Below, one piece after another: positions 97-34,380 of a stretch of 56,852 nucleotides of DNA (positions within the stretch are counted from its first letter, which is position 1; each line of letters opens with the position of its first letter). The stretch is taken from positions 1-56,852 of the forward strand of contig JAYUSF010000086.1 of NCBI GenBank assembly GCA_043755815.1, read 5' to 3'. The notes below the pieces were generated by a model, which was not told the DNA's origin, did not search any database, and saw nothing but the letters and a program-made list of their open reading frames with translations. This stretch comes from Verrucomicrobiota bacterium (GTDB lineage: Bacteria > Verrucomicrobiota > Verrucomicrobiia > Limisphaerales > UBA9464). The position numbers and the translations under genes are program-made.

Positions 97-124
97 GCGA
101 GGCGGAGAGGGCAGGGGTGGGGGG
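97..124 (-). repeat. Half of a CCCCTCACCCC/CCCTCTCCC-type REP-like element upstream of DUF559
   Basis: GCGAGGCGGAGAGGGCAGGGGTGGGGGG reads CCCCCCACCCCTGCCCTCTCCGCCTCGC on the reverse strand, matching the 625-670 element in inverted orientation. Confidence 0.75.
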
Positions 125-174
125 TTCGTCCTCCGACTTGCCACACGCCCTCGTGTTCCCAAACGCCCGCCGCC

Positions 175-621
175 ATGCCGCTCCGCAACCACAACGAATT
201 CTCCCGCCGCCTTCGCCGCGAACAGACGGCGGAGGAAAGGGGCCTGTGGAAGGATCTTCGCAGCCGCCGTTTTGCCGGCTTCAAGTTCCGTCGCCAGCAC
301 GAGGTCGCGCCCTACTTTTTGGATTTCTTCTGCCCGCTGGCCAAGCTGGCCGTGGAATTGGACGGCTTCGGTCACGGCCTGCCCGGACAACGGGGACACG
401 ACACAGAGCGCGACGCCTGCCTCGCGGCCAAGGGCATAGAATTGCTGCGCATCTGGAACCTGGATTGGAGCCGGAACCGCGAAGGCTGCCTGCTGGAAAT
501 CTGGGCGGCCCTGACGCGCCGGGTGCCGGCGGAGGAACTCGCGCAGCTCGACACGGCCGACGCGCATTTCGTTCCCCCGAAGGAAGGTGACATCCTGCGG
601 TCAAGCCGGGGGCCACGGTGA
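175..621 (+). CDS. DUF559 / Vsr-like (PD-(D/E)XK) endonuclease domain protein
   Basis: Motifs SRRLRREQT.EE..LW..LR.RRF.GFKFRRQH...PYFLDFFC...KLAVELDG.GH......D.ERD..L...GI.LLRIWN. ATG at 175 was chosen over the ORF start at 79, which lies in the IS end. Confidence 0.9.
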   Translation: MPLRNHNEFSRRLRREQTAEERGLWKDLRSRRFAGFKFRRQHEVAPYFLDFFCPLAKLAVELDGFGHGLPGQRGHDTERDACLAAKGIELLRIWNLDWSRNREGCLLEIWAALTRRVPAEELAQLDTADAHFVPPKEGDILRSSRGPR

Positions 622-624
622 AGA

Positions 625-670
625 CCCCTCACCCCAGCCCTCTCCCCTCTTCCGCGGAAGGGAGAGGGAG
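625..670 (+). repeat. REP-like element (CCCCTCACCCC tail + CCCTCTCCC..GGGAGAGGG hairpin)
   Basis: CCCCTCACCCCAGCCCTCTCCCCTCTTCCGCGGAAGGGAGAGGGAG is 43/46 identical to the copy at 31972-32017. Confidence 0.85.
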
Positions 671-3095: not shown

Positions 3096-3401
3096 TTAAT
3101 GCAGCTTACGGGGATCGTAATCGGGATTGGGTTGCGGTTCGGAAATCAGACGCGGCTTCTCCGTCAGCCAGAAGGCCACCGCAAGCCCGCACCACAGCGG
3201 CTGAAGCAACAGCAAGACGGCACATAACCACTCCAAGAAGCCGAATGATTGAGGCCAGCCATTGCATAACGGGAGCGACGCAGTTAGGGCGACAAACAGC
3301 CAGATCACCGAGAGAAAACCGAAGAACCGTGCCCGAGGCCGGAGCACAACCCGACTTGTGACCCAGCCTCCGTTGGCAGCGATGCTCACGGATGATTTCA
3401 T
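3096..3401 (-). CDS. Small hypothetical membrane protein
   Basis: Two hydrophobic segments. Its ATG (3401) overlaps the TGA of the duplicated PmoA 3' end (ATGA overlap). Confidence 0.55.
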   Translation of the reverse strand: MKSSVSIAANGGWVTSRVVLRPRARFFGFLSVIWLFVALTASLPLCNGWPQSFGFLEWLCAVLLLLQPLWCGLAVAFWLTEKPRLISEPQPNPDYDPRKLH

Positions 3402-3449
3402 TTCGCGGCTTTCACCCATAATTCAAACGCCGCGGCGACGTTCGCCTGC
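3398..3449 (-). repeat. Diverged copy of the last 52 bp of the PmoA-family gene (3748-3799)
   Basis: 45/52 nt identity; encodes QANVAAAFELWVKAAK* versus QANVAAAFEEWVKGAK*. Confidence 0.85.
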
Positions 3450-3483: not shown

Positions 3484-3676
3484 GCGCTTTCCCCTCACCC
3501 CGTTGCTCTCCCCGAAGGAGAGGGAGAATGTCGTTGCGGTGTGGGAATCCACAGGCCGTGGGTTTCGATTCAGCGAGGGTTTTCGCTGTCTTCGTCAGTC
3601 TGACCGATAAACAGGCCAAGTGTTTGCGGGCTGCCCCCTCTCCCCCAGGGCGAGGGCCGGGGTGAGGAGGAAACGC
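3484..3676. repeat. Inverted REP doublet (CCCCTCACCCC family), no cargo gene
   Basis: CCCCTCACCCCGTTGCTCTCCCCGAAGGAGAGGGAGA (3491-3527) and the inverted CCCCCTCTCCCCCAGGGCGAGGGCCGGGGTGAGGAGG (3634-3670). Confidence 0.8.
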
Positions 3677-3747
3677 GGGTAGCGGAACACCGCCGCACAG
3701 TTCGCCCGTGCATTCGTTGGAACCATCACCCCGTTCTCCGTCCCATC

Positions 3748-4770
3748 TCATTTTGCGCCCTTCACCCATTCTTCAAAGGCCGCGGCAACGTTCGCCTGCG
3801 TGGTGTCGCCCTGGTGGAAGATCATCCGGTAGCGGAACGTGGCGCTCTGGCCGTTGGGAATCTTGAGGTCGCCGGTGCCCTTCTCCTTTTTCTCAAAGTC
3901 GTGGAGGCCGAACGGATTCGCGGCGAACAGACCGTAGTCGCGCACATGCCACCAGGTCGGGTAGCGCGGGTTGGACGGATGATCGAACATGGCGACGCCG
4001 ACCGTTTTCGCGCCGACCGGGCCGTGGTAGTCCACCCACTTGGCGCGTTTGCCCCACGTTTCGCCGTCCTTCACGCCCTCGGAATTCACGATGTGCCCGA
4101 GGCCGGGTTTGTTCTTGGGCTGGGTAAGCCGCATGGATTCGGCGAGGCGGATGGCCATGGTGCCCTCCTTCGTGTCGCCGAGCACGAGGTCGCCGTTCGA
4201 AGCGAAGATGGTGACTTCGAAATCCACCGTGCGTTCCGTGCCGCGCGGGCGATGGAAGCGCAGCGTGCGTTCGTCGGAGGCGATGACCTTGCCGTCTTTC
4301 GCGATCCACCGGTTCCGGGTGGTGAGCGAGCCGGTGTTCGCGCCTGACTTCAGGTCGGCAAACGACTGGTGAACCGTGCGGCCGGCTTTGTCGGTCTCGC
4401 TCCAGAAATCCTGCCCGTTGGCCTCACCGTGTGACCACCAGACGGAGTGATGGTGCGGATGATCCCGCTCCTCGCCGCCGGGATCGGCCTGGGGCCACTG
4501 CCGCGTGAAGTGCTCGCCGTCGGGGCCAAGCACGGGAAACAGGAACGGCCGCGAAACGTCGCGGAAGTGGTATTCGGTGAAGAGCTGGCCGTTCAGTTCC
4601 ACGCGGACGACATCGTTCGTCTCGAACAGACGGACGCCCGCCACGGGAGCGCTTCGTGCCGGTGCAATCTTGGTTCGACCGGAATGTTCCGGAGCCGAAC
4701 AGCCGACACCCCAAAGCAACAGCAGCGAGCCGCCCAATGCGGCAGCGAAACGAAACGACACGGGGAACAT
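3748..4770 (-). CDS. PmoA family / DUF6807 protein, probable lipoprotein
   Basis: DHPHHHSVW, DFW, WVDYHG, FDHPSN, WHVRDYGLFAANPFG motifs; lipobox-like GVGC. Confidence 0.85.
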   Translation of the reverse strand: MFPVSFRFAAALGGSLLLLWGVGCSAPEHSGRTKIAPARSAPVAGVRLFETNDVVRVELNGQLFTEYHFRDVSRPFLFPVLGPDGEHFTRQWPQADPGGEERDHPHHHSVWWSHGEANGQDFWSETDKAGRTVHQSFADLKSGANTGSLTTRNRWIAKDGKVIASDERTLRFHRPRGTERTVDFEVTIFASNGDLVLGDTKEGTMAIRLAESMRLTQPKNKPGLGHIVNSEGVKDGETWGKRAKWVDYHGPVGAKTVGVAMFDHPSNPRYPTWWHVRDYGLFAANPFGLHDFEKKEKGTGDLKIPNGQSATFRYRMIFHQGDTTQANVAAAFEEWVKGAK

Positions 4771-7244: not shown

Positions 7245-10200
7245 TCATTGTTGCACGACGAAGCGGAAGAACTGGTTCTGTTGGCCGGCTTGTGGCGAGT
7301 TGGACCGGATCACGACCCGTTCGAAACCGTCTGGCAGCGGCGTGGTGGAGACCACCGTCGACCCGAGGTCATCGGTGAACAGCACCGAACTGGCGACCCG
7401 CGTCGTCAGTTGGGCGGTCCCGGCGCTCTGCCGGCGGATGATCGTCACCGCCGGATAATCCACGCCGCCGACCTTGACGTTGGCGACCGGGAACGACGGC
7501 CGTTCCGCGCCCGCGGTCGGGGAAGTTCCGTAGTAGAACTCGGCGAGGTTGTTTGCGCCGTCGCCGTCGGCATCCGCGCCCGGTTGGGCGTTGTCGCCGG
7601 TGAGGCCGGCGCCGGTGGCCCACGTCACGAAAGGATCGGCCACTGCGTTCACTACGAGGGTTGCGGTTGCGCTGTTCGTGCTGCCGCCGCGGTTGGAGAT
7701 GATTACGTGGTAGTCACCCGCGTCGGCCACACTCACGTTGTTCAAGGCCAGCGCCGCTCCGTCCGCGTCGGGCAGCAGCGTGGCGCCCCGATACCATTCG
7801 TAAAAGAGGCCGTCGCCGGTGGCAGACACGTTGAAGGCGAAGCTCCCGCCCGGGGAGGCGGTGCCGCCCGCCGGCTGGGTGACGAGCACGGGCGGCAAGT
7901 CGCTCGAAACGGGATTGGCGAGGCGGCTGGCATCGTTCGCCGACAGCACCTGGTTGTAGAGCCGGACCTCGTCGAGGAGGAAGGCGCCCGAAGCCCCGTT
8001 GGCCCCGCCGCCGTAGCGGCCGAATTCACTGCCGCCCCGGGCCGAGCCGCCGATCAGGTTCGAGGAACTGGCCAGAGCCAGCGGTTCGCCGTTCACATAC
8101 ATGGCGTAATTGCCGGCCTCCGCGTAACCCTGGCCGTTGTAGGCGACCATGAAGTGCGTCCACTTGCCGACGAGGTTGGGCACGTAGGCCCGGTCATCGC
8201 TGGAATGGACCGACTTGAAGCCGCGGGTCGCCAAGAAGATACGGTTGCCGAGCGTGGTAGTGTCGTTGCCGCCGAGGAAGAGGTAGTGCTCCCGGTTGCC
8301 AACGACGAAGGCGTAGACGTTCAGCGACGTCTCGACTTCGGGCCGGATCCAGAAGGAGACGGTGTAGCCGGTGCCGAACATGGTGGGCGGTCCTTGCCCC
8401 AGTTGCACCGAATCGGCGCCGGTGGTGATTCGCACTGCCTCACCGTCGTAGCCGGCGCCGAACCCACCTGAGCCTTTTCGGCTGGAGGCGTAGCGGTTGG
8501 CCTCTTCCACGAGGGTGCCGTCGAAGTGATGCACGCCCACCAGGCCGTTGGTCGGCAGCACGGCGGCGGTCTTGACCGGGCGGACGCGCATTTGGGCCGG
8601 TCCCGCGGTGATTTCGCCGGCGGGATTGAAGACCCGCACGGAATAGCGGCCAGCGTCCGTGGCCTTGACCGTCGGCAGGTTCAACGTGGCGTTGGTCGCG
8701 TTGGCGACGGGATCGTCGCCCAGCCGCCATTGGTAGCCCAGGCGGAGGCCGGTCGCCGTGACGCTGAACGTGGCCGTCTGGCCCACGTTGGCGACCACGG
8801 ACACCGGCGGCTGGGTGACCGCGGGCGGCGTGATCACCCCGACCTTGGCCACACGACTGGACAGTTCGCCGGAAGCGTTGCGGATGACGACGCGATAGTC
8901 GCCCGCCGTGGCGGCGGTGGCACGGGTGAGCGCGAGCGTCGGCGCGGTCTGGCCGGTCAGCGCCTCGCCGCCCTTGAACCACTGGTAGGTCACCGCGCTC
9001 GTGCCCATGCCGGCGGCGACCAGTTCCACGGAACCGTCCAGGGCCAGTTCTGCGTCGGCCGGCTCGCGGGTGAAGTAGAGGTCGAGCGTGTCGCCGGTCA
9101 GCAGGGCAAGGCCGTTCCGCAGCAGGCCGTCCGCCCGGTCGAAGGTGCCGGCGACGAGGATCTCGCCGGTGGGCAGGAGGGCGACATCGTAGGCGATGTT
9201 CTGCCCAGCGGTTCGCGTGAAGCCGGTGCCGGGATTGAAGCTCGGGTCGTGCGATCCGTCCGCGTTCAGGCGGGCGATCAGGCTGCGGGACTGGCCGTCC
9301 ACCTGGGTGAACGCGCCCACGATCACCAGCTTGCCGTTTACCTGTTCGGCGAGCTCCATCACTTCCCCGTTGATCGCCGCCGGCACGAACGCCGGGTCCA
9401 GCGCGCCGTCGGACAGGAAGCGGGCGATGCGCGTCCGGGGCAGTCCGTTGTAGTTTTCAAACCCGCCGAGGACGAAGAAGCGCCCCTGCCGGTCCACCGC
9501 CAATCGCCCGGCCCGGCGGCCGAGCGGGAAGACGTTGGTGGACGGCTTGAACGCAGGGTCTAACGAACCGTCGGCGTTCAGCCGCACCACCGTGGTGTCG
9601 AAGACGAAGTTGCCCTGGAAGATCCGCTGGGCCTCCGAGAGCACCAGGATCTTCCCGTCAGGCAGCGGTTGGACCCCGATCCCGCCCGCGGCGGGAATGA
9701 AGCCCGCGGCTGCCGTGCCATCAGGGACGAGGCGGACCGGCTTGGCGTTCGCCCAGAGCAGCACCGCACCGTCCGCCTCCACGCGGATCGTCCCGGTGAA
9801 GCTGGGGAGGTAGCCGGGGATGAGCGTGCCGTTCAGGTCGAAGGCCCGGATCGCGTAGGTGGGCGACATGTAGATGCGGCCGTTCGCGGCATCCACGGCG
9901 ACGCGGTCCCGCAGGAGGCTGGTGCCGGGCGCGCCGTTGTAAGGGTAAGGCAGCGAGAACTGAAGCTCGCCGAAGCGGTTGTAGGCGCTGCCACCCGACA
10001 AGTAGAGGCCGTTGGGCAGGACGTTGAGTTCAGTCAGCCCCAAAGTGCTGCCGGCATTGGTCGGGAAGCTGGTGATGACGGCGCCCGGGCGCACGGTGAC
10101 CGTAACCACCACCGGAGCGCTGGTGACCGAGCCCAGCGAATTGCCGACCACCACGTCGTAGTTGCCCGCGGCGCCGAGGGCGACGGCGCGGTTGGTGTAA

Positions 10201-13200
10201 CTGGCCGCGGTGGCCTGGGCCAGCGGCGTGCCGTTGCGGCGCCACAGGTAGCTGAGCGGGGCGACACCGCGGGCGTTCACGCCGAGCAGCAGCGTGTTCC
10301 CGAGGCCGAGTTCGCCGCCGCCGGAGAGCGAGAGAATTTCGGGTGCGGCGAGCACGACCAGCGTGGCGACGCGGCTGGTCTGCGAACCGGAGCGGTTGCT
10401 GACCACGACGGCGTAATCGCCGTTGTTCTCTGGCTGGGCGCTGTTGAAGACGAGCGTGGCGTTGGTCTCGCCGGTGAGGTTTTCGCCGTTGCGCTGCCAT
10501 TGGTAACGCACCTTCGAAGTGCCGGTGGCCGCGGCGGTAAACGTCACCTTCGAGCCGGCGTTCACGGTCTGCGACTGCGGCGACGTGAGCAACGCCAGCG
10601 GCGTCACGGTGCCGTTGAGTTTGACGATGGTTCCGCCGAAGGCAGCCCAGAACGCGCCGTCGGGGCCGACGCGAATGAAGGTGTAGGGTCCGGAAGCGGA
10701 ACGGGGGACGTTGAACCGGCTGAACGGCTGCGCGCCGGTGCCATCCGCCGTGAGGATGACGGCCTGCGGCGGGTCGGTGAGCTGCGATACTCCGACCAAG
10801 CCTCCCGACGCGGTGAGGTCATAGGCGGTCAGGAGCTGCGACCACGCGTAGCCGGGGTCCACCCGGCCGGTTTCGTTGAGCCGGTAGAAGCCGCGGAAAT
10901 CGGAGACGATCGCCCCGTCCGCCAGCGCAGTGACGGTCCAACTGCTGGTGAAGACGTTCGTGGGGGCAAAGGTCAGATCCAACGCCCCGTCCGGCAACAG
11001 ACGCGCAATCTGCGACCTGGGTGCGCCGCCGACCGTGGTGAAGTTACCGGTCAGATAGATGCGGCCAGCCGGATCAACGGACGCGGATTGCAGCGCGGAA
11101 TTGACCTGCGCCCGGGTGCGGAAGCCGGTGTCCTCGACTCCGGCCGGCGACAGTCGGGTGATGGTGTTGCCGATCACAAACACGCTGCCGTCGGGGCCCA
11201 GATCCAGGCCGTAGCCCGGATTGACAGTGAAGGTGGCGAAACTGGCGTCGGGCGAACCGTCGGCATTCAGCCGCCGGACGAGATAGGGCCCACCGCCTTC
11301 GTTGCTGCGGACCAGCACGACGATCCGGCCATCGGGCTGGACCTTAAACGCAACAAACTCCGTGAGGCCGGTGGGGTCGAAGTGGAACGAGTCGTCCGTG
11401 GAACCGTCGGCGTTCAACCGGGCCAGCATGACGTCCACCGTGGAATTGGACACCGTGCTAAAGGTCCTTCCCGAGATCAGGATCCGCCCCTCGGCGGCGA
11501 AACCGATGCCATTGAGCGAAAAGGTGAAGTTGCCCTTCGTGGGGAATAGTTTCGGCGCGAAGGACGGATCGGTCGCTCCGGGGAGCGGGATGACCGTGAG
11601 GAACGCCGGTTCGCTGGTCGCGGAGGTGCCGTCGCCGCCGGTCACCTTCACCGCGTAGTCGCCGGCGGCGGTGAGCTGGAGGTTGGTCAGCGTCAGCGTG
11701 CGGTTGGTGGCGTTGGCGACCGGATTGCCGTCCTTCAGCCATTGGTAGCCGAGCGGCAGCTGGCCAAAGGCGCTCACCGCGAAGCTCACGGAATTGGAAA
11801 TGACGCCGACGGCCGGCAACGGTTCCTGGTCGAGCACCACCGGGCCGCGCACCCGGACATTCACCGGCGCGCTGGTGTAGCTGCCACCGGCGGAGGTCAC
11901 CACGAGATCATAGGCGCCCGAAGTGGCGAGCGTGACGTTGTTCAGCGGCAGTTCGAGGCCCGTCGCCCCGCTGATTGGCGAGCCCTTGAAGCGCCATAGC
12001 AGTCCGGTGAACGGACCCGTGACGGTGCCGCGAAGGGTGATCGAAGCGCCGACGTTTGGTGTTTGATCCAAGCCGGCATAACCCAAGGTCGGGCCATTCA
12101 GGTCGGTGAAGATGCGGAATAGGTCGCCGACGAACTGGCCGCGAACGCTGGCCGCAAAGACGCTGATCCAAAGACGCCCGTCCTCGGTCAGCTTGAGCAG
12201 GTTGACCGCCGCGTTGCCGCCCGCGGCCTCAAGACCGACCGTCGGCATGCCGGCATCCAACGTCCCATCGGGTTTCAGGCGGACGAGATAGTTGTGTCCG
12301 CCAAAGGCGAAGAAGTTGCCGCCCACCCAGATCTTGCCGTCGGGTTGCAGCGCGAGGGCGTTCACCGTCGGGGAAGGCGAGATGTTCGGCATGATGTCGC
12401 CGAGTGACGGGTCGAGGGAACCGTCGGCGTTCAAACGGGCCAGGCCGCGGCGGGTCTGGCCACCCACGCTGGCGAAGCTGCCGCCGAGGAGGATCCTCCC
12501 ATCGGCCTGCACCGCCAGCGCGTTGACCGTGGTGCTGTTGAGGGGGAACTGCGCGGGAACCCAGGAACGATCCAGCGCCCCGTTCGGCAGCAGCCGGGCG
12601 ATGCCGACCCGCGTCGTGGCGTCCACCTCGTTGAACTTTCCGACAATCAGGACCCGGCCATCGGGCTGGAGCGCGAAATCGGCCACATAGTTGGCCTGGA
12701 ACCGACCGATGCTGACTGGGCTTTGGAACGTCGCGTCGAACGATCCGTCGGCGTTGAGCCGGTGGATGCCGCCCACACTGCCCCCGGCGATCAGGAACTT
12801 GCCGTCGGCCACCCGCACGATCTTCCGCGGCCCGCCAGCCACCTCATTCGGCCAGGGCCAGGGGGCATCCAACGCCCCGTTGGCCAGCAAACGGCGGTAA
12901 TAGCGCTGGTTGTCGCCGGTGTCGGTTGCACCGACGAGCACCGAACCGTCGCCCAGCGGCAGCAACGTCCGCGGACTGCCCGCGGAAAAGCCCGGACCGC
13001 TGCCGGAGCCAATGACGGCGCCGGTGACGAACGCCGGATCAATCTGGCCGTCCGGGAAGGTCCGGCGGACCCCGGTGTAGGCTTCAAGCTGCGAACTGAA
13101 GGGGCCGCCGTAGAACACGCCGCCGTCGGGCGCGATGGCGAAGGCGGTCACCGTTCCGGAGGTTTGCGGACGGAAGGAGTAATCGACGAACCCGGGGCCG

Positions 13201-14603
13201 GTCGGGACGACGGTGAGCTGACCCACCTGATTCGTCACCGTGCCGGCGGCGTTGCGGACGACGAGGGTCAAGGCTCCGGTCTGGTTGGTGTCCGTGGCGG
13301 TGAGGTTGAGGGCGGCCGCCGTCTGGCCCGCGAGCGGTGAGCCGTTCAGCCGCCATTCGTAGGTGAATGGCGCCGTGCCGCGGGCGGTGGCGGCGAGCCG
13401 GAGGGTGCTGCCGACATTGACGCCAAAGGGCCCGGCGGGTGTCGTGGTGACCATGGGCGCGATGTTCGTGCGGATGACCGTCGCCAGGTCGAGCCGGTGG
13501 ATGCCCTTGTCGCCGGCGAAGTAGAGGGCGCCGTTATGGGAGTAGAAGGATTGCGCGAGGATGCTGCCGTTGGCGGCATTGCCCTCGATGCGGGGCAGTT
13601 CGGTCCACGAATCGCCTGTCACAGTGCCCTCGAAAAATCGCGGGTTGCCGTCGCTGGTGCTCACGAACACGCGGTCGCCGAGGAGTTCCACCTTCCGGGC
13701 GTTTGGTTGGATCACCGACGGCACAAACGGATTCGGTCCCTGGAGAACTCCCATTCCGACCTCGGTCCACGTGGCCCCGCCGTCGCGGCTGCGATAAAGC
13801 CGGCTGTCGGAAATGGCAAAGGCCGTGCCGTCGGGCGCGCCCAAGACATCGGTGGCGTTCCAACTCCGGCCTCCCACGAGCGGGCTATCCACCACGCCGG
13901 GGATGCCGTTCACCGCCTGGGCCCAAGTGGCCCCGCTGTCGGCGGAACGGAACACCCCGCGGACCGCCGTGGCGGTGAGCAGCGCGTCGCCCGCGCTGGC
14001 CACGGCGTAGTAGGTCTTCGCGAAGTTCACGAACGGCGCCGTGGGCAGACCTTCGCCGGCGGCGGTCCAGGTCAGGCCGTTGTCGGTGCTCTTCCACACG
14101 CCTTCCGACAACACGTCGCTGAAATAGATGGCCCCTTTGTGGAGCACCAGGTCGCTGATGCCGATGCCCGCCGGATTGCGCGCGGACGAGGCGAAGGGCA
14201 GCGGCACCTCGGTCCACTGGGCGCCCTGATTGTCGGAGTAAAAGATGGGTGAACCGACCTTGTTGTTCCACGACGCGTTGTCGCCGCCCCGAATCACGCG
14301 GCCGGTGGGCGTCACGAGGAAGGCCTTGGGCAACAGCATCCGGCCGGCGCCGTCCACGAGGCCGTTCGTCGCGCCGGTCCAGGTCAGTCCGTTGTCGGCG
14401 GAGCGGAACACCTGGCCCGGGGCGAGACCCGCGTAAAGCGTGTTGCCGGAGCCGCCGCCGATGGCGGATCCGGCCGCTTCGTTGAGATTGATGACGTGCT
14501 GCCAAGTTTGGGCGGCGGCCGAGAACGACAGCACGGCGGCACAGGCGGTCGCGGTCAAGGAAACGCCGAGGCCAGCACCCGGATAGAATGGACGATTGCG
14601 CAT
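7245..14603 (-). CDS. 2452-aa secreted multidomain protein: BNR/Asp-box propeller, Ig-like domains, delta-60 (DUF5122) propellers, LamG-like domain, Verrucomicrobia-type C-terminal tail
   Basis: Signal peptide; S.D.G.TW repeats; ALQPDG(K/R)I..GG.F and RLNADGSLD.SF repeats; YQW.KNG...GDY.V.V.N Ig motifs; LDEVRLYNQVLS; DADGDG.NNL.EF...FFR tail. Confidence 0.9.
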   Translation of the reverse strand: MRNRPFYPGAGLGVSLTATACAAVLSFSAAAQTWQHVINLNEAAGSAIGGGSGNTLYAGLAPGQVFRSADNGLTWTGATNGLVDGAGRMLLPKAFLVTPTGRVIRGGDNASWNNKVGSPIFYSDNQGAQWTEVPLPFASSARNPAGIGISDLVLHKGAIYFSDVLSEGVWKSTDNGLTWTAAGEGLPTAPFVNFAKTYYAVASAGDALLTATAVRGVFRSADSGATWAQAVNGIPGVVDSPLVGGRSWNATDVLGAPDGTAFAISDSRLYRSRDGGATWTEVGMGVLQGPNPFVPSVIQPNARKVELLGDRVFVSTSDGNPRFFEGTVTGDSWTELPRIEGNAANGSILAQSFYSHNGALYFAGDKGIHRLDLATVIRTNIAPMVTTTPAGPFGVNVGSTLRLAATARGTAPFTYEWRLNGSPLAGQTAAALNLTATDTNQTGALTLVVRNAAGTVTNQVGQLTVVPTGPGFVDYSFRPQTSGTVTAFAIAPDGGVFYGGPFSSQLEAYTGVRRTFPDGQIDPAFVTGAVIGSGSGPGFSAGSPRTLLPLGDGSVLVGATDTGDNQRYYRRLLANGALDAPWPWPNEVAGGPRKIVRVADGKFLIAGGSVGGIHRLNADGSFDATFQSPVSIGRFQANYVADFALQPDGRVLIVGKFNEVDATTRVGIARLLPNGALDRSWVPAQFPLNSTTVNALAVQADGRILLGGSFASVGGQTRRGLARLNADGSLDPSLGDIMPNISPSPTVNALALQPDGKIWVGGNFFAFGGHNYLVRLKPDGTLDAGMPTVGLEAAGGNAAVNLLKLTEDGRLWISVFAASVRGQFVGDLFRIFTDLNGPTLGYAGLDQTPNVGASITLRGTVTGPFTGLLWRFKGSPISGATGLELPLNNVTLATSGAYDLVVTSAGGSYTSAPVNVRVRGPVVLDQEPLPAVGVISNSVSFAVSAFGQLPLGYQWLKDGNPVANATNRTLTLTNLQLTAAGDYAVKVTGGDGTSATSEPAFLTVIPLPGATDPSFAPKLFPTKGNFTFSLNGIGFAAEGRILISGRTFSTVSNSTVDVMLARLNADGSTDDSFHFDPTGLTEFVAFKVQPDGRIVVLVRSNEGGGPYLVRRLNADGSPDASFATFTVNPGYGLDLGPDGSVFVIGNTITRLSPAGVEDTGFRTRAQVNSALQSASVDPAGRIYLTGNFTTVGGAPRSQIARLLPDGALDLTFAPTNVFTSSWTVTALADGAIVSDFRGFYRLNETGRVDPGYAWSQLLTAYDLTASGGLVGVSQLTDPPQAVILTADGTGAQPFSRFNVPRSASGPYTFIRVGPDGAFWAAFGGTIVKLNGTVTPLALLTSPQSQTVNAGSKVTFTAAATGTSKVRYQWQRNGENLTGETNATLVFNSAQPENNGDYAVVVSNRSGSQTSRVATLVVLAAPEILSLSGGGELGLGNTLLLGVNARGVAPLSYLWRRNGTPLAQATAASYTNRAVALGAAGNYDVVVGNSLGSVTSAPVVVTVTVRPGAVITSFPTNAGSTLGLTELNVLPNGLYLSGGSAYNRFGELQFSLPYPYNGAPGTSLLRDRVAVDAANGRIYMSPTYAIRAFDLNGTLIPGYLPSFTGTIRVEADGAVLLWANAKPVRLVPDGTAAAGFIPAAGGIGVQPLPDGKILVLSEAQRIFQGNFVFDTTVVRLNADGSLDPAFKPSTNVFPLGRRAGRLAVDRQGRFFVLGGFENYNGLPRTRIARFLSDGALDPAFVPAAINGEVMELAEQVNGKLVIVGAFTQVDGQSRSLIARLNADGSHDPSFNPGTGFTRTAGQNIAYDVALLPTGEILVAGTFDRADGLLRNGLALLTGDTLDLYFTREPADAELALDGSVELVAAGMGTSAVTYQWFKGGEALTGQTAPTLALTRATAATAGDYRVVIRNASGELSSRVAKVGVITPPAVTQPPVSVVANVGQTATFSVTATGLRLGYQWRLGDDPVANATNATLNLPTVKATDAGRYSVRVFNPAGEITAGPAQMRVRPVKTAAVLPTNGLVGVHHFDGTLVEEANRYASSRKGSGGFGAGYDGEAVRITTGADSVQLGQGPPTMFGTGYTVSFWIRPEVETSLNVYAFVVGNREHYLFLGGNDTTTLGNRIFLATRGFKSVHSSDDRAYVPNLVGKWTHFMVAYNGQGYAEAGNYAMYVNGEPLALASSSNLIGGSARGGSEFGRYGGGANGASGAFLLDEVRLYNQVLSANDASRLANPVSSDLPPVLVTQPAGGTASPGGSFAFNVSATGDGLFYEWYRGATLLPDADGAALALNNVSVADAGDYHVIISNRGGSTNSATATLVVNAVADPFVTWATGAGLTGDNAQPGADADGDGANNLAEFYYGTSPTAGAERPSFPVANVKVGGVDYPAVTIIRRQSAGTAQLTTRVASSVLFTDDLGSTVVSTTPLPDGFERVVIRSNSPQAGQQNQFFRFVVQQ

Positions 14604-22348: not shown

Positions 22349-25300
22349 ATGAAACGCATACTGTCCCTGTTTTTGACCACCGTGTGGGTCGGACTGTCGG
22401 CGCACGCCGACATACTCGCCCAATGGAACTTCAACAACGCCGCCGCCCAGGCCACGCCGAGTGCTGGGGCCGGCACCTTGGGGCCGATCGGCGGAATCAC
22501 CGTCTCTGCCGCCGCCAGTGGCGTCGGCTCGTCGGACCCGGAAAATGCGACCAACGCCGACAATGCCTTCCAAACGACCAAGTATCCGGCCGCCAATGCC
22601 GCCGACCGCACGGCGGGCATTGAGGTCGCCGTCAGCACGGCCGGATTCAAAGACATCCAGTTCACTTTTGACTTCCGCGGCTCGGGCACCGCGAGCCGGA
22701 AATGGGCCGTCCTCTACTCGCTGGATGGCGTGACCTTCGTCGAGGGGGCATTGCAGGAAATCCTGGTCGGCAGCGCGTTCACCAACGGGATCACCCTGAA
22801 TCTCGCGGGCGTTGCCGGCGCCAACGACAACCCGCAGTTCAAGATCCGGGTGGTTTCCACCTTCAATGACGGGGCCGCTTATGCCGGCATCTCCAGCGGC
22901 TACGGCACCGCCGGCACCGCCCGCTTCGACATGCTGACCGTCGCGGGCGAAACGCTGGGTGGCTTGCCGATCGCCGCCGCAATAGTCACCCCGCCCCAGA
23001 GCCGCACCAATTTTGTGGGCACCACCGCCAGCCTGACCGTCAACGCCAGTGGCACGCAGCCGCTGACCTTCGCTTGGGAAAAGGAAGTGAACCCCGGCGA
23101 ATGGCAGGCCGTGAACGGGGGCGTCAACTCCACGCTCACCTTGGCCAACGTCCAGTTGACCGACGCGGGCAAGTATCGGGTGCGTGTCGCCAACGACCAA
23201 GGCTCGGCGGTGAGCGATCCGGCCGAACTGACCGTGCAGGAAGATCCGTCCAGCGTCGTCAGCACCATCGCGCAGCTCCGCGCCAAGGTGGACCCGGTGA
23301 CCTTGACGCCCGCGGATACCACCGCGCTCTACAAGGCGGAAGGCATCGTCACCACCCGCATCAACCTCACCGGCACCGCCGACGCGTTCTTCTATTTTCA
23401 GGACGCCACCGGCGGCATCGGCGTGTTTGTGCGCGGCGGTGCCGGAGCGGTGCCGCCCGCCGGTGCCCAGGTCCGCGTGACCGGACCCTTGGGTCACTTT
23501 AACGGCCTGTTGGAACTGAACCTGGTGGCCACCACGGCGACCCACAAGGTGGAGACGCTTTCGACCGGAAACCCGCTCCCCGAACCGGTGCCGCTGAACT
23601 ACGGGTGGCCGACGACCGCATCGGCCGTCGACGATCCCGGGGTCATCGATGCCGAACTCAACGAGGCGCGGTTGGTCATCGCCACCAACGTGTTGATCGA
23701 TGCCACCTCGCCCACGTTCACGAGCGGATCGAACGTCACCCTGACCGATGCGGCTGATCCGGCCAGGACGTTCACTCTGCGCGTGGATTCGCGGGTGCTC
23801 GACATCATCGGACAGCAAAAGCCCGGCGGGCCGGCGACCATCGTGGGCGTGCTCAGCCAGTTCGACAGCTCCGATCCCCGCGCCGGCGGTTACCAGTTGC
23901 TGCCCACCCGCTACGCCGACATCCGGAGCGCCACCAAGGCCCCCTCCATCCGTTTTACCAACACCCTGTCCAACCTGGTCCGTCCGGGTGACGCCCTCAC
24001 CAACACCTTTGCCGAACAGGTCCTCCGTCCGGGCGAATCCCTCCGCATCGGGTTTTCCGTCACCGACCCCGACGGGCGCCCGGTGGACGTGACGCTCGGC
24101 ACCGCGATCCCGGAGGGCGGAGCATGGAACTTCGCCAGCACCAGCGGGACGACGGTCCAAGGTCAGTTCACCTATACCGCCGCCGCCGCCGCGGCCGGCC
24201 AGGCCTATGACGTCGGCGTTACCGCGAACAACGGATCGGCCAGCTTCACGCAGACCGTCCGCATCTACGTGCCCACCGCCGCGGAACAGCAGGTGGTCAT
24301 CACTGAATTCTACGCCAACCCCGCGTCGACCAACGCCGCGGCCTGGTTCAATCCCCTGAATCGCGCCGAACTCCTGCCCGGCGGGACCGATACCAGCCCG
24401 TCGAACCGCGATGAATTCGTCGAACTCGTGAACCTCTCGGACCAGACCGTCGACCTGTCCGGTTGGATGCTTTCCGACGCGCTCGCCCGGCGGGCCTACC
24501 TCTATCCCGGCACGCCGGGAATCTCGTTGGCACCCTCCAATTCCGTGGTCGTCTACGGCGGCCCGGCCGTGGGCTACTCGCCCCAGCTCGCCGTGCCGGC
24601 GATCGCGGCGGAAGCCGGTCCCGGCGACGCCTTCAGCAACTCGGGCCTCGCGCTCAACAACGACGGCGACACGATTATCCTGCGCAATGCCGATTCGAAC
24701 CTGGTGGCGCGCGTCGTTTATGCGGCGTCCATGACCAGCACGAACGGGTCGATGACCCGATTCCCGACCGACCGCGACGGTTTTGCGGCCCACCGCAGCA
24801 CCGGCCTTCTCCATTGGTCGCCCGGCACCCAGGCCGATGGCCAGGCGTGGACCGCAGGCCAGCCGAGCGCCGATATCGGTCCGGCGTTTACGACGATGCC
24901 GGTTTCGGTGACCGTCGCGGCAGGGACCCCGGCCAACTTCACGGTCGTCGCCACCGGTCTGCCGGCGCCGACCTACCAGTGGCTGCGCGGAGGGGTGAGC
25001 CTGCTGGGCGAAACCGCTTCAGGCTACACGCTCGGCAGCCCGCAGCTGACCGATGACGGAGCCAGCTTTCAGGTGATCGTCGCCAACCGGGCGGGCTCCA
25101 TCACCAGCCCCCCCGTCACCCTCACCGTCACTGCGCCGGTGCCCGAAATCATCCGGACCAACCTCGCCTACCTGCGCTCCCAAGTGGACCCGGTAAACCT
25201 GCGACCGGTCAGCACGACGCAACTTTACGAAGTCGAAGGCATCGTGACCACACACGTGAACCTGACCGGTTCGGCGAACAGCTTCTTCTACCTGCAAGAC

Positions 25301-26059
25301 GACACCGCGGGCATCTCCGCGTTCGTGACCGGCAGGCCGGGAAGCGAAACCCCGCCCGCGGGTGCCCGCGTCCGCATTGTGGGACCCTTGGGCCACTTCA
25401 ACGGGTTGCTGGAACTCAACCTCGTCGCCTCCAATGCGAAGCACGTCGTCGAGGTCCTTTCGACCGGCAACGCGTTGCCGGCGCCGGTGGCCCTCGACTA
25501 CGCCTGGCCCACGTCCGTGACCGATCTGACAGCGGCTTCGCCCGGCGTGGCCGGTGCCGAGGCCAACGAAGGCCGGCTCGTGCGGGTGGACAATGTGCTC
25601 GTGGATTCCTCCACGGGCGGCATCTTCACCGGTGGCTCCAACGTGACCCTTACCGACGGCACCGATTTCGGAAAAACGTTCGTGCTGCGGATTGATTCCC
25701 GGGTGACCGAAATCATTGGCCAGCCAAAGCCGAATGCGACTGAAACCGTGTCGCTCGTGGGCGTGCTTGGCCAGTTCGACAGCACCGACCCCCGTGCGGG
25801 CGGCTACCAGCTGATCGTCACGCGCCGGGCCGACATCATCACCGGCGTTGTCCCCGGCCCGATCACCGCCACCGCGGTGGTTAGTTCAGACAGTGTTACG
25901 CTCAGCTGGAACGCAACCCCGGGCGCCACCTACTCGGTGCTCCGCGGCGCCAACGCGGCGGGGCCATTTCTGCCGGTAGCCAACGGGTTGAACGCCGCCA
26001 GCTACACCGAGGCCACCGCCGGTCGAAACGAGGCGTTTTACCGGATCACCTCACCCTGA
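22349..26059 (+). CDS. 1236-aa secreted protein: Ig-like domains, duplicated OB-fold (DUF5689-like) module, lamin-tail-like domain
   Basis: Signal peptide; internal repeat (about 23261-23923 vs 25156-25837) with FY.QD.T.GI and G.L..FNGLLEL; LTD-like VVITEFYANP...DEFVELVN...DLSGW...LNN.GDTI.L; C-terminal FYRI. Confidence 0.85.
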   Translation: MKRILSLFLTTVWVGLSAHADILAQWNFNNAAAQATPSAGAGTLGPIGGITVSAAASGVGSSDPENATNADNAFQTTKYPAANAADRTAGIEVAVSTAGFKDIQFTFDFRGSGTASRKWAVLYSLDGVTFVEGALQEILVGSAFTNGITLNLAGVAGANDNPQFKIRVVSTFNDGAAYAGISSGYGTAGTARFDMLTVAGETLGGLPIAAAIVTPPQSRTNFVGTTASLTVNASGTQPLTFAWEKEVNPGEWQAVNGGVNSTLTLANVQLTDAGKYRVRVANDQGSAVSDPAELTVQEDPSSVVSTIAQLRAKVDPVTLTPADTTALYKAEGIVTTRINLTGTADAFFYFQDATGGIGVFVRGGAGAVPPAGAQVRVTGPLGHFNGLLELNLVATTATHKVETLSTGNPLPEPVPLNYGWPTTASAVDDPGVIDAELNEARLVIATNVLIDATSPTFTSGSNVTLTDAADPARTFTLRVDSRVLDIIGQQKPGGPATIVGVLSQFDSSDPRAGGYQLLPTRYADIRSATKAPSIRFTNTLSNLVRPGDALTNTFAEQVLRPGESLRIGFSVTDPDGRPVDVTLGTAIPEGGAWNFASTSGTTVQGQFTYTAAAAAAGQAYDVGVTANNGSASFTQTVRIYVPTAAEQQVVITEFYANPASTNAAAWFNPLNRAELLPGGTDTSPSNRDEFVELVNLSDQTVDLSGWMLSDALARRAYLYPGTPGISLAPSNSVVVYGGPAVGYSPQLAVPAIAAEAGPGDAFSNSGLALNNDGDTIILRNADSNLVARVVYAASMTSTNGSMTRFPTDRDGFAAHRSTGLLHWSPGTQADGQAWTAGQPSADIGPAFTTMPVSVTVAAGTPANFTVVATGLPAPTYQWLRGGVSLLGETASGYTLGSPQLTDDGASFQVIVANRAGSITSPPVTLTVTAPVPEIIRTNLAYLRSQVDPVNLRPVSTTQLYEVEGIVTTHVNLTGSANSFFYLQDDTAGISAFVTGRPGSETPPAGARVRIVGPLGHFNGLLELNLVASNAKHVVEVLSTGNALPAPVALDYAWPTSVTDLTAASPGVAGAEANEGRLVRVDNVLVDSSTGGIFTGGSNVTLTDGTDFGKTFVLRIDSRVTEIIGQPKPNATETVSLVGVLGQFDSTDPRAGGYQLIVTRRADIITGVVPGPITATAVVSSDSVTLSWNATPGATYSVLRGANAAGPFLPVANGLNAASYTEATAGRNEAFYRITSP

Positions 26060-27100: not shown

Positions 27101-27356
27101 CCGGGCTGGCCGCCGGGGACGGAAGGCGCCTTTCGATCAGACGCTTCCGGGGTGCATCGTTTCATCGTGACCCCGAGCGTGCATCGCGGGCTGGGCCTCG
27201 TTGGCGCGAGGCTCCGGCCGAGCGGGTAGATCCCACCGGCTCAGCCGGAGCTGCGCGCCACCAAAAAGGTTCCGTCGGAGGGAACTTTCAACAACGTTGA
27301 AACCGTGCCTATCCGGTTTGATGACAAACCGCGAACCGCAGCGCCGGAGGTGCGAC

Positions 27357-27719
27357 AGACAGTAGCCCACAGCGAGAGCTGTGGGTGGTGTGAGGAAAGG
27401 GATGCTCAGCCCCGGCAGGGGCGGCAGAGGGCAGGCGTAGCGGTGCGTTCGCGCGCTGTGTCGGTCGCCCCTACCGGGGCTACCGGGTCCGAACCAAGCA
27501 TCCCACGGCTGACGCCATTGGTATCTACACAAGTCCCCGCTCTCCCCGCGAGGAACGAGTGGGGAGAGAGCCGGAGAGAGGGGAAACCCAATGAAAGCAC
27601 CTCCTCTCCCCCGGCCCTCTCCTCCTTCCTTCGTCAGGAGGAGAGGGAAGAAACCTCAATGGAATCAGCTATCTTTGACTTGTGTAGATACCAATGGCTG
27701 ACGCCGTGGGCTACTGTCT
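27357..27719. repeat. GTAG-type REP inverted doublet
   Basis: AGACAGTAGCCCACAGCGAGAGCTGTGGG and inverted CCCACGGCTGACGCC[insert]GTGGGCTACTGTCT, with internal GCCCC..GGGGC hairpins. Confidence 0.75.
27517..27695. mobile_element. Inner 179-bp MITE inserted in the REP hairpin
   Basis: Perfect TIR ATTGGTATCTACACAAGTC (27517-27535 / 27677-27695); flanking direct repeat GGCTGACGCC (27507-27516 / 27696-27705); contains a CCCTCTCC REP doublet. Confidence 0.85.
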
Positions 27720-27913
27720 TCCGGCCCTCCGGGCCTTTGGCAACAAACCGGATAGGCAAGGTTGAACCGATGCGCCCGACGCGACCCGCCGGCGAGGGCC
27801 GAGAAACTGCGGTCGTTCCCTCGGGGAGGGACTCCAAGTTGGAGCTTTGAGCGGGGCCGCGAAACCGCGCTCCTTCCTTTGCGCCCGTCCCGTTTTCTTC
27901 CAACCTCCCCGCC

Positions 27914-29374: not shown

Positions 29375-31685
29375 CAGCCCGTTCAAAAAGGGTTTCGTTG
29401 GCGGGAGCCGACGACAGGAGGCTCTGCCTTGCGGCGGAAAATGGGGACTCGTTACCTCGTCTCTGCCGGAAGCAGGGCTTTTTGAACGGGCGGCCAGGTG
29501 CCGGGTCCGCCGTTCCCGGTTGTGGAGGTCGCGGTGGCAGCGCCCTTGGTCAGGCGCCGAGTTCATCCGGTTCACCCTGTTGTCGCTGTTCCTGGCCTGC
29601 GGGCCGGCCTGGTCCTCGGCCTCCGAATTTGGGGTCTATTGGGGCACGCGCGATCCGGTCCCGGGGACCGATCCGCTCCGCACGGCCTTGGCGGACGCCG
29701 GCGCCGAATGGACGCGGGGTGATCGCGGGACCGCCCGGCTGACCCCCAAGGCTTCGCTGGTCTGGTGGCCGGGAGCCGCCTACGTCCGGAATTCCACGGG
29801 CGGGGGCCCGGGCCAGTTCCACCTCCTCCCCGACCTCTGGTCCGTTTTCTGGGCGGCTCGAACCAACAGTCCCGGCGGGCTCCAAACGGTCGCGGCGATC
29901 GAGGTCGGCAATGAGCCGGACCTGTCTTTCACTCCGGATCTTCCCGACCGCATGGCCGCCACGCTGAAGGCGGCCTGGTGGGGACTGAAAGGCGCGCATC
30001 CGGATCTCGCCGTCCTGATGCCCAGTCTCGCCGCCGCACCTGGCCCCTATGCCCGCCAGTTGGTGGACAACCGGATCATCCCGTTCACCGAAGGCTGGAA
30101 CTTCCACTTCTACGGCTGGGCACAGGATTTCGGCGCCAGCGTGGCGAGTCACCGGGATTTTGCCCGCCGCCACGGGGGCGGGCACCTGCCGCTCTGGATC
30201 ACCGAATACGGCTACGCGGATTTTCCCGGCAATCCGGGTCCGGCGGAGGACTTTTATCTGGCCCAACAACGGGCCTTTTTCGAAAGCACCACGATGGAGG
30301 CGACGGCGCTGGGGGCCGCCCGGCTGATGGCGTTTACCCTTTCGCCGCACCTGGAGGGCGGAAGTTTGGACATGGGCCTGACCGCTGCGGACGGATCGCC
30401 GCGCCCGGCCTTCACCGCGTGGCTCGAGTTGGCGCGTCGCCTGCGCGTCGCCCAACCGTTGTATCGTCTGCGGCAGGTCGGGTTCGACCAGACGGTGGGC
30501 TGGGTCTGGCAGATGCCGGCGACACCCGGGCGGGCGGAGAGCTGGTGGACGATGCTGCAATCTCCGCATCGGCAAGGGGGGTTTGAACTGCCGAGGTTGC
30601 CGGGGCGGGCAGAAACCGCCCAGCCCGACCCGTTGCTGCCCGCCACGTTCTTCGAATTTCAACTCCAGTTTGCCGAAGGAGGCGCTCCCAGAGCCGTGGG
30701 GTTGATCGGGGAATACGGTTCCTGGCCTGAGTCCATCCTGCACTTCAGCGCCAGCACCACCACCAACCTGCACCTGCTGACCCCGCCCGGCCGGTTTGAC
30801 GTGGCCGGCTGTCGTTGGGAACCCCTGGCCGCGCCCAGGCCCGGCCGCCTCCGACCCGCGGCGGTTCCCAGCCCGGTGGTGGCGACATTGACGCCGCTCG
30901 GGCCCGAATTCTCGGTCGACAAGCGGGCGGTGGCCTATCGCCATGAGCCGGGCAGTGCGTTGACCTTCGAAGTCCGCCTCCACAATTTCAGCGCGGCTCC
31001 GGCGGCCGGACGATGGCGCCTCTCGCTGCCGCCCGGGTGGCGTCCGGCCCGCTCGGATCAGACGGATGGACGCGTGCGGATCGCGGCCTTCCACGATTAC
31101 TGGACGGCGGTGACCCTTCGTCCCCCAGCCGGTAATCCGCCTGGACCGGAGCGCATCCGGCTGCACTGGCAGGGGGGCGCGGGAGTGACCGACCAGGCGG
31201 AAATCCAGCTTCGGCCGCGGGCGGCCGATTCCCGGGCGGGCGTCCCGCTGGACGCCCGCTGGCAGCCCGCGGCGGCGGAGACAGGATGGATCGAAGAGCC
31301 AACGGAGGGAAACCAAAGGTTCAGTTCGGGACGAACCCGGGGCACCGGCAGCGAAAGCCTCGTCGTGTGCCTGCCTGAAGGCGCCCTCCGTTCCCCGGAT
31401 GTCATCCTGCGGTTTGGCCTGCGCCTTTCGCCGGGCCCGGCATCGCTTCGGCGCCGGGTGGAGCTCGTCACGGCGCAGCGGGAAGTGTTCCGCTGGGGTG
31501 AAGACGACCTGCTGGACGACCGCTGGCAGTTCATCGAAGCGCGGGTCGGCGATTTCACGCCGGGAATCTGGAGCCATGTCGGGCCGGGTGACGCGACTGC
31601 TGCCCGCTATTTGCGGGTGTCGCCGATGCGGCTGCCGGCCGGTGCCGCCGTGGAATTGACGCCCGTCACGTTGATCCGGCCCTGA
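29367..31685 (+). CDS. Secreted clan GH-A glycoside hydrolase-like protein with C-terminal beta-sandwich domains (start uncertain)
   Basis: IEVGNEPD (acid/base), NFHFY and LWITEYG (nucleophile) motifs. Confidence 0.7.
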   Translation: MASSPFKKGFVGGSRRQEALPCGGKWGLVTSSLPEAGLFERAARCRVRRSRLWRSRWQRPWSGAEFIRFTLLSLFLACGPAWSSASEFGVYWGTRDPVPGTDPLRTALADAGAEWTRGDRGTARLTPKASLVWWPGAAYVRNSTGGGPGQFHLLPDLWSVFWAARTNSPGGLQTVAAIEVGNEPDLSFTPDLPDRMAATLKAAWWGLKGAHPDLAVLMPSLAAAPGPYARQLVDNRIIPFTEGWNFHFYGWAQDFGASVASHRDFARRHGGGHLPLWITEYGYADFPGNPGPAEDFYLAQQRAFFESTTMEATALGAARLMAFTLSPHLEGGSLDMGLTAADGSPRPAFTAWLELARRLRVAQPLYRLRQVGFDQTVGWVWQMPATPGRAESWWTMLQSPHRQGGFELPRLPGRAETAQPDPLLPATFFEFQLQFAEGGAPRAVGLIGEYGSWPESILHFSASTTTNLHLLTPPGRFDVAGCRWEPLAAPRPGRLRPAAVPSPVVATLTPLGPEFSVDKRAVAYRHEPGSALTFEVRLHNFSAAPAAGRWRLSLPPGWRPARSDQTDGRVRIAAFHDYWTAVTLRPPAGNPPGPERIRLHWQGGAGVTDQAEIQLRPRAADSRAGVPLDARWQPAAAETGWIEEPTEGNQRFSSGRTRGTGSESLVVCLPEGALRSPDVILRFGLRLSPGPASLRRRVELVTAQREVFRWGEDDLLDDRWQFIEARVGDFTPGIWSHVGPGDATAARYLRVSPMRLPAGAAVELTPVTLIRP

Positions 31686-31690
31686 GGGTT

Positions 31691-32141
31691 GGAGCGGGGA
31701 GCGGGGAGCGGGGAGCGGGGAGCAGGGGGCCGGGGGCCGGGGGCGGGGAGCAGCTGGCAGAACTCCCAGAGGCAGTTTCAGCAGTGTTTTTCCCGGGGAA
31801 CCGCCTTCCGCCCGTCCGGAAGATCCTGCCCAAGCCTTTGTGTCCTTCGTTCCCTTGTGGTTCAGGTTTCCGGGCCGATCGCTCCCTGCTCCCTTCGCCC
31901 TTCATCCGATGAGGGGAGAAGGTGGCCGCAGGCCGGATGAGGGGTGAGGCACATTGTGCCGCCATCAGGAACCCCTCACCCCTGCCCTCTCCCCTCCTCC
32001 GAGGAAGGGAGAGGGAGCAGCGGGCGGAGACCCGGGCAAGCCTTTGTGCCCTTCGTCCCTTCGTCCCTTCGTTGTTCGTTGTTCGTTGTTCGCCTCCCGC
32101 TTCGCTCCCCGCTCCCTGCTCCCTGCTCCCTGCTGCTCCGC
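31691..32141. repeat. Mosaic repeat block 1
   Basis: (GGAGCRG)n tract, GGCAGAACTCCCAGAGGCAGTTTCAGCAG, CAAGCCTTTGTGYCCTTCGT module, REP doublet, inverted (CYGCTCC)n tract. Confidence 0.85.
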
Positions 32142-33662: not shown

Positions 33663-33749
33663 CTTCCTTTGATAACGGCGAGGGCACCCTAGCCGGAAGG
33701 CGCCCACTGGCCAAGCGGCAACAAAGCGGAACTCAGAACCGGAAGCGAC

Positions 33750-34380
33750 GAGCGGGGAGCGGGGAGCGGGGAGCGGGGAGCGGGGAGCAGGGGAGCAGGG
33801 GAGCAGGGAGCTACGAGCCGGGAGCAGGGGGCAGAACTCCCAGAGGCAGTTTCAGCAGCTTTTTCCTGGGGAACCACCCTCCGCGGGTCCGGAAGACCCG
33901 GGCAAGCCTTTGTGTCCTTCGTGCCTTCGTGGTTCGTCTCTCTCCGGGCCGGTCGCTACCGCTTCCCGCCTCGCTCCCTTCGCCCTTCATCCGATGAGGG
34001 GAGAAGGTGGCCGCAGGCCGGATGAGGGGTGGGGCACATTGTGCCGCCCCTTCAGGGCTTGCCCGGTCTGGTCCAATGCCCCCCAGGGCGATGCCCTGGG
34101 CTGGGTTGTCCCGCTCCTTCGGGGCTTTGATTTCGGAGTTGAAACCGAAGACAGGGTTACGGCCCACCACCCAGCCCCCCAGCCATTGCGCCACGGTGCT
34201 CAGGTGCGACCCGGGCAAGCCTTTGTGTCCTTCGTCCCTTTGTGGTTCGTCTCTCTCCGTCCCGCTCCCTTGCTCCCAGCTCTTGCCTCTTGCCTCTTGG
34301 CTCTTGGCTCCCGGCTCCCGCTTCCCGCTTCGCTCCCTGCTCCTTGCTCCCAGCTCTTGGCTCCTTGCTCCTTGCTCCCT
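33750..34380. repeat. Mosaic repeat block 2
   Basis: First about 300 bp repeat block 1 in direct orientation; adds CCCAGGGCGATGCCCTGGG-type hairpins and a pyrimidine-rich heptamer tract. Confidence 0.85.

Follow-up and report, generated by a model that had tools for sequence, protein, structure and literature searches.

Association of DUF559 nuclease genes with BoxC-type repeats in Verrucomicrobiota and other phyla, a candidate RAYT/REPIN-like system

The DUF559 gene of the window and the repeats around it

The window analysed here, a whole stretch of 56,852 nucleotides, is contig C86 of a Verrucomicrobiota genome (G000; 5.74 Mb, 83% complete). Close to its left end, a DUF559 gene (PF04480, E=1.3e-29) runs on the plus strand from the ATG at 175 to the stop codon ending at 621 and encodes a protein of 148 aa. 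A complete BoxC-type unit, consisting of a C-rich tail and a hairpin, begins 3 nt past this stop codon (625-670, plus strand); its purine strand shows the TM triplex pattern's third G-tract, with a longer loop. The left unit (97-124, minus strand) is degenerate and comprises the tail, which points toward the gene, and the first hairpin arm only. Its closing arm is missing, and the end of a multicopy IS-like element (1-96, terminating in ...ACA and containing internal repeated 14-mers) sits at the hairpin tip. The left copy is therefore cut by an insertion-sequence-like element end, and the same repeat is whole in the orthologous cassettes of G001 and G005. An earlier note, made from the sequence alone, had described the gene as bracketed by inverted hairpin repeats; this is correct for the intact right copy, but the left copy is half a hairpin. 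The neighbours of the gene are a Crp gene and the IS end.

The element end at 1-96, possibly IS481-like, abuts a hairpin of the repeat family in all four of its G000 copies (the others are on C254, C348 and C47). It also stands against a BoxC-type hairpin in a congener (L097), and in a contig assembled from sequencing run X3 it is joined to another repeat copy. No transposase was found behind its copy in G004. A second IS-like end (36060-36116) cuts a repeat arm at 36116, and its seven copies (the window and G000 contigs C84, C165, C215, C251, C274 and C277) all sit at one position in the purine arm of the repeat. It is a second repeat-targeting element. That IS-like ends cut into the repeats fits a use of the repeats as insertion target.

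Further members of the repeat family are present at every coordinate given in the earlier note, which had regarded several of them as doublets with tails pointing inward. This layout was found at 27540-27650, 31891-32017 and 35458-35584, but the hairpins of the doublet at 3491-3667 (arms at 3491 and 3634) face each other, and 33976-34030 (minus strand) is a lone left arm. The doublet at 3491-3667 belongs to the major non-autonomous class of G000, and none of five congeners has the unit at the orthologous site. It is bracketed by 3'-terminal sequence of a DUF6807 gene, with a diverged copy of 55 bp on one side (3395-3449) and the other copy on the opposite side (3745-3799). Such duplicated gene ends of 45-79 bp surround some other repeat-bearing inserts as well (G000 contigs C175 and C283) and may be recombination scars. 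The two loops of the doublet at 31891-32017 match the left and right flanks of the window gene's clade, and its right arm (31972-32017) is identical to 625-670 at 43 of 46 positions, as had been claimed before. It is the best candidate for an emptied cassette. The doublet at 35458-35584 is a near copy of it, the lone arm at 33976 is of the same subtype, and in a further tails-in pair (35984-36150) the right arm is the one cut by the second IS-like end.

The doublet at 27540-27650 is of another subtype and is nested in an inverted pair of matches to the Rfam family Acido-Lenti-1 (27340-27385 and 27691-27736), which together with other inverted arms around 27540/27601 form a nested palindrome (27290-27775). 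Given this inverted, dispersed layout, the Acido-Lenti-1 'sRNA' may be a DNA repeat. The region 31678-36250 is a mosaic of 7-nt tandem arrays, six copies of a 74-nt unit and BoxC-type doublets, and surrounds the gene of a sugar transferase and, at 34453-35263, a UPF0175/DUF3368 gene pair. The window also encodes two very large Ig-domain surface proteins, at 7245-14603 (2452 aa, with DUF5122 propellers) and 22349-26059 (1236 aa, with lamin-tail and DUF5689 domains).

The DUF559 protein, the repeat family and their association

A structure model of the DUF559 protein, built from an alignment (pLDDT 86.8), matched 3HRL (Foldseek E=6.8e-7), I-Bth0305I (E=2.9e-4) and, weakly, Vsr (E=0.16); the sequence matched 3HRL with E=1.5e-13. 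The predicted catalytic residues E21, D50, D63, H67 and D76 are all present in the window protein. Among 55 sequences, E21, D50, E61, D63 and D76 are invariant and H67 is found in at least 90%. The model thus points to a Vsr/EDxHD nuclease fold and a predicted nuclease. The earlier note knew of no biochemical characterisation; one protein that contains DUF559, VsrA of Caulobacter, was studied in vivo (PMC12907096). As described there, VsrA damages DNA in the cell, and cells without the ScmA methylase require it for their SOS response. DUF559 proteins can thus damage DNA in vivo. Its authors proposed VsrA as a very-short-patch (VSP)/mismatch-repair enzyme, with the VSP role presented as a hypothesis, and vsrA itself is not linked to a cytosine methyltransferase gene (PMC12907096). 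E21, D50, D63 and H67 have the same spacing as the proposed VsrA residues E73, D102, D115 and H119. No cytosine methyltransferase was found among the scanned neighbours of the window gene, where the left side is the contig end.

By its sequence pattern, the repeat of the window is the BoxC/PIT/TM triplex motif and hence already known, so that the family itself cannot be regarded as novel. Knowledge of the BoxC/PIT/TM repeats goes back to the 1990s; they were found in more than 260 genomes and were tied to local genome instability, with neither their origin nor an enzyme known in that account (PMC4666352). Oligonucleotides of the E. coli motif form an intrastrand triplex in vitro, none having been detected in vivo, and TM loci show more variation between strains around the motif (PMC4666352). 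The published TM pattern has 57 strict matches in G000 and 74 with a relaxed loop; the long-stemmed copies at 625-670, 31972-32017 and 35539-35584 match the relaxed-loop form only. A slightly relaxed repeat pattern found 22 copies in E. coli K-12 (control 0), compared to 23 published (Holder et al., 2015, PMC4666352). Chance does not account for the family in G000: the pattern matched 130 times in the 5.74-Mb genome but never in 2 Mb simulated with an order-4 Markov model, and the reversed pattern gave 0 matches. Rfam held no family for the repeat unit at gathering score.

In G000, about 165 units form 96 clusters, 48 of which are simple hairpins-facing doublets. Neighbouring pairs within 700 nt comprise 54 hairpins-facing, 7 direct and 12 tails-in arrangements, the last count being too low because the profile misses RIME-like left arms. 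The major doublets measure about 175-200 bp and hold a conserved asymmetric core between their hairpins (51 doublets; 3530-3632 in the window, for example). The earlier note had read several gene-less doublets as cassettes in which a short filler replaces the gene. This does not hold for the majority, which is oppositely oriented (54 vs 12) and has its own conserved core; most doublets are therefore not emptied cassettes, and the idea fits the tails-in minority only. Sixteen of the 51 doublets lie inside ORFs that are open for at least 100 codons on each side. Information per codon phase in the core is 0.69/0.77/0.72 and the host ORFs use at least four frames, which speaks against constraint at the protein level and places the conservation at the DNA level. 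A hammerhead ribozyme, suggested by a resemblance of the core, was also rejected: no hammerhead match to Rfam was obtained at E up to 5 (five loci), and no covarying stems were seen among the 51 doublets. The core is possibly a protein-binding site.

All three DUF559 genes of G000 are flanked by repeats with tails pointing inward. In a collection of 71 distinct DUF559 domains, 59 loci had a repeat unit within 330 nt and 48 had units on both sides, while random stretches yielded 70/3000 and 1/3000, respectively. The enrichment of the repeat next to DUF559 genes, which the first reading of the window had proposed to check, is thus seen at this distance. Weak or fused DUF559-like domains had no unit nearby (0/13), and in the relatives the repeat profile matched at 22/22 strong DUF559 loci as against 0/10 weak or fused ones. 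Several of the 12 loci without the pattern show other tail-hairpin repeats. Tail-plus-hairpin repeats were present at eight of eight loci from Alpha-, Beta- and Gammaproteobacteria, Deinococcus and cyanobacteria (six by pattern, two by eye). Those clades that have support in the protein tree (110 columns, with many weak forks) each have their own repeat subtype and layout, although shared locus ancestry can account for part of this match. The association between gene and repeat is real, specific and found across phyla. Among 72,556 plasmid records, 42 carry the DUF559 partner, and many of these are chromosome- or chromid-sized. DUF559 genes in three records titled Klebsiella or Bifidobacteriaceae (L151, L152, L158) fall among those of Verrucomicrobiota, and in two cases the upstream flanks are similar as well; these titles are probably wrong.

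Two alternative explanations have to be considered here. DUF559 might be an ordinary VSP repair nuclease, acting on T:G mismatches that arise from methylcytosine and carried as cargo within repeats that are moved by another enzyme. The Vsr fold of the model agrees with such a role, and so does VsrA, as a DUF559-containing VSP candidate required for the SOS response without ScmA (PMC12907096). Other small accessory genes in repeat regions, such as the UPF0175/DUF3368 pair, would likewise be compatible with cargo, as would repeat-rich genomes without DUF559. For cargo, however, it is unexpected that almost always this one gene is found across phyla, with clade-specific flanks; the neighbours seen are a Crp gene, an IS end and type I (adenine) restriction-modification genes, and for VsrA the VSP role is put forward as a hypothesis by its authors (PMC12907096). 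We consider this explanation unlikely, if by no means far-fetched.

Alternatively, the repeats might be REP- or MITE-like sequences on which a transposase, of RAYT/IS200 type or another kind, acts in trans, with DUF559 being incidental. Y1_Tnp matches are indeed found in 57 of 61 related genomes, with 15 in G000, and two IS-like ends are tied to repeats in G000. Nevertheless, none of 30 IS200/RAYT-type Y1 transposase loci from relatives had a unit nearby, nor had any of the six G000 loci found by profile (the profile search recovered 6 of the 15 Pfam matches). Moreover, the units carry no GTAG/CGTC tag, the IS-like ends cut into the repeats, which is consistent with target use, and Holder et al. 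saw no remnants of transposases or integrases in the surroundings of TM sites (PMC4666352). A transposase acting in trans therefore appears very doubtful.

Mobility, loci and copy number

Sites were compared with those of five congeners, and 7 of 60 site-by-genome rows, confounded by duplicated flanks or other repeats, were dropped. In 36 of the 53 usable comparisons the orthologous site lacks the repeat unit. Filled and empty sites, as anticipated in the earlier note, thus exist between congeners for the repeats and for some cassettes. Relative to the congeners, one DUF1549/DUF1553 protein contains two doublets and a 1539-aa ORF contains one as in-frame insertions of 57-107 aa, and a doublet in a DUF3418 helicase is common to the congeners or partly deleted. 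On G000 contig C108 (L069:3137-7471), an open minus-strand frame of 1444 codons extends through two doublets and a DUF559 gene in antisense into a DUF1549/DUF1553 protein; at this site, G002 and G003 are shorter by 1044 bp.

Several DUF559 genes have changed place. Sister genes occupy different loci in G000 and G004, each being absent at the other's site. In one clade the gene is inserted in frame together with translated repeats, at several positions within Hsd proteins; all 17 long host ORFs that were checked are HsdR (12), HsdM (4) or HsdS (1), and one HsdR contains two separate in-frame DUF559 cassettes (L107:1287-5459). Here the entire cassette moves, in frame, into type I restriction genes. 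The window gene, which had been envisaged as the autonomous member of the system, does not look like a frequently jumping element: six of seven close orthologues keep one locus, after a common upstream gene, presumably ileS as judged from a C-terminal motif, while other DUF559 clades do relocate. The upstream gene was not found in the G000 assembly (83% complete), and the right neighbour of this DUF559 gene differs between genomes. The window gene is likely RAYT-like, staying at one locus while the repeats move.

The congeners are 70-95% identical, and comparison with them, which included no within-species empty allele, revealed neither a constant target duplication nor a sharp end of the element. 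Likewise, no clean empty joint spanning a doublet or cassette site came from within-species sequencing runs. In the relatives, other sequence takes the place of a clean empty site at C175. Flanking direct repeats were enriched, at 8 of 94 clusters compared to 11 of 1000 controls, and two of the four strongest are gene-end copies; ordinary recombination scars are as likely a source as long target duplications. Site differences of an equal 899 bp turned out to be an artefact of a duplicated flank.

Repeat number and gene presence go together among the relatives: 15 of 20 related genomes with full-length DUF559 have at least 10 strict repeats, compared to 3 of 41 without (p=1.3e-7, a value that is overstated because related genomes are not independent). 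Four of the five genomes that have few repeats despite full-length DUF559 carry the in-frame type or a partial match only. Among 300 genomes of the phylum, three of the seven with a pattern excess of at least 15 (draft genomes) have full-length DUF559, and most of the 25 gene carriers show few matches to the repeat pattern. Subtype abundance tracks the cognate gene loosely, as the main subtype of G027 differs from that of its gene, and G001-G003, in which no A-clade gene was found, carry 8-18 copies of subtype A. Ten E. coli chromosomes were counted, with 22, 20, 24 and 13 copies where ycjD is present and 1, 2, 12, 14, 15 and 1 where it is absent, so that the ranges overlap. Repeat-rich genomes without full-length DUF559, which the earlier note had named as evidence against its proposal, thus exist and count in part against it: in G031 (95% complete), 50 repeats but no DUF559 were found, and G158, G182, G223 and the ycjD-less E. 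coli strains with 12-15 copies are further cases. Decay of the repeats after gene loss and incomplete assemblies could be reasons for these exceptions.

In E. coli, ycjD is present at a single locus in 3,378 of 5,426 genomes. The K-12 gene has repeats on its 3' side only, namely a BoxC downstream and a damaged unit across the gene's 3' end; this unit is whole in another allele, which matches the 12-nt-longer ycjD of PMC12817139. The fabI-sapF site holds either ycjD or the eef efflux cluster (L033, L038; also PMC12817139). A filled/empty junction was therefore rejected for ycjD: strains without the gene hold the eef cluster there, which indicates replacement, so no insertion junction can be read. 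In one E. coli strain, IS421 lies directly beside the BoxC downstream of ycjD (L037:908-2246).

Stationary genes and uneven copy numbers also bear on the possibility that the nuclease is a guardian or resolver, which cuts a replication-blocking hairpin or triplex, so that repeats would last where the gene is found, while the repeats spread by host slippage and recombination. The stable TM triplex in vitro and the greater variability of TM loci between strains (PMC4666352) accord with this, as do the stationary clade of the window gene, the three of six ycjD-absent E. coli chromosomes with 1-2 copies only, and ragged junctions and tandem copies, which fit repair. However, a guardian leaves unexplained why the gene is bracketed by its own substrate, how doublets with a fixed spacing come to lie at scattered new sites within genes and why a whole cassette was repeatedly inserted in frame, and the ycjD-absent strains with 12-15 copies also argue against it. 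In our view a guardian role is quite unlikely.

Proposed mechanism and relation to known systems

We propose that DUF559 genes and BoxC-type repeats constitute a two-part selfish, RAYT/REPIN-like system, in which a Vsr-fold nuclease acts together with host repair; binding, cutting and causation are inferred, and we regard this proposal as evenly poised between right and wrong. The single-stranded repeat, once folded, would be nicked by the predicted Vsr-fold nuclease, after which copies of the repeat-bounded DNA would reach new places through host repair. Doublets would be copied most often and the gene rarely, with the exception of the in-frame clade. A Vsr-type site hydrolyses DNA and is without HUH or DDE chemistry. 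Because it only hydrolyses, the joining step would be left to the host, homing-like rather than by transposition. It is tempting to speculate further that DUF559/YcjD proteins are dedicated structure-specific nucleases of BoxC triplex repeats, which would then represent a widespread, transposase-free mobile DNA, often in frame in proteins; we put this forward tentatively and find it somewhat easier to doubt than to accept.

The repeat and the protein family are each known. A search of the open-access literature returned no paper linking DUF559/YcjD to BoxC-type repeats, and the words 'ycjD' and 'endonuclease' do not occur in the main text of PMC4666352, whose supplements may list flanking genes. 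The repeats described here share with BoxC/PIT/TM the common sequence pattern, the frequent inverted pairs and the uneven distribution between strains. In K-12, the published copies are described as always intergenic and without a partner gene (PMC4666352), whereas many copies here are in frame in genes. Further differences from the published family are the conserved doublet core, the longer stems of the window units and the tight DUF559 linkage.

REPIN-RAYT systems are similar in many respects (Bertels and Rainey, 10.1101/2021.07.10.451892; Di Nocera, 2013, PMC3733652). Both have inverted doublets in tens to hundreds of copies, present or absent between relatives; a low-copy, repeat-flanked chromosomal partner gene that is mostly stationary and rare on plasmids; a repeat subtype for each partner clade; and repeats that serve as IS targets. 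Inheritance of the partner at one locus holds for the window clade (6/7) and ycjD, but not for the sister genes of G000 and G004 or the in-frame clade. In contrast to REPIN-RAYT, the partner is a predicted Vsr-fold hydrolase and not an HUH/Y1 enzyme, and the repeat has a C-rich tail, no GTAG/CGTC tag and a third strand. Frequent in-frame insertions and a clade that moves its own gene also set the two apart. The DUF559-linked system would thus work like REPIN-RAYT but does not belong to it, having neither HUH enzyme nor GTAG/CGTC tag.

The EDxHD homing endonuclease I-Bth0305I resembles the modelled DUF559 protein in its catalytic fold and a similar acidic/His motif, and EDxHD homing endonucleases, as presented in PMC3239194, provide a precedent for a Vsr-like domain that drives a selfish element via host repair. 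Unlike these enzymes, DUF559 is a stand-alone domain of 148 aa without a long N-terminal DNA-binding domain; it has no intron or intein host (no Rfam intron in the window), its sites are dispersed and not confined to a single cognate allele, and it is flanked by structured repeats. With Vsr and VsrA it shares the fold and the spacing of catalytic residues, VsrA itself containing DUF559 (PMC12907096). It differs from Vsr in that no methylase was seen adjoining the window gene, and classical Vsr is not described as repeat-flanked in that source. RPE and CIR, as described by Delihas (2008, PMC2229807), are likewise palindromic repeats of 100-200 bp; RPE is found in frame in proteins and CIR has two hairpin arms and a linker. 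Unlike for the DUF559-linked repeats, no partner nuclease is known for either in that account.

RIME elements are palindromic repeats of 100-200 bp as well. For the orphan BoxC family, a partner nuclease would mean that the likely missing partner has been found, and a direct experiment is possible in K-12, which has ycjD and 22-23 copies. If the enzyme drives the spread, the DUF559 genes and their repeats would be a REPIN-like system with a different chemistry and a source of in-frame protein insertions, as well as a second Vsr-fold route to selfish DNA beside the EDxHD homing endonucleases. The DNA damage caused by Caulobacter VsrA could then be read in an alternative way, and DUF559 would possibly be a triplex-recognising nuclease.
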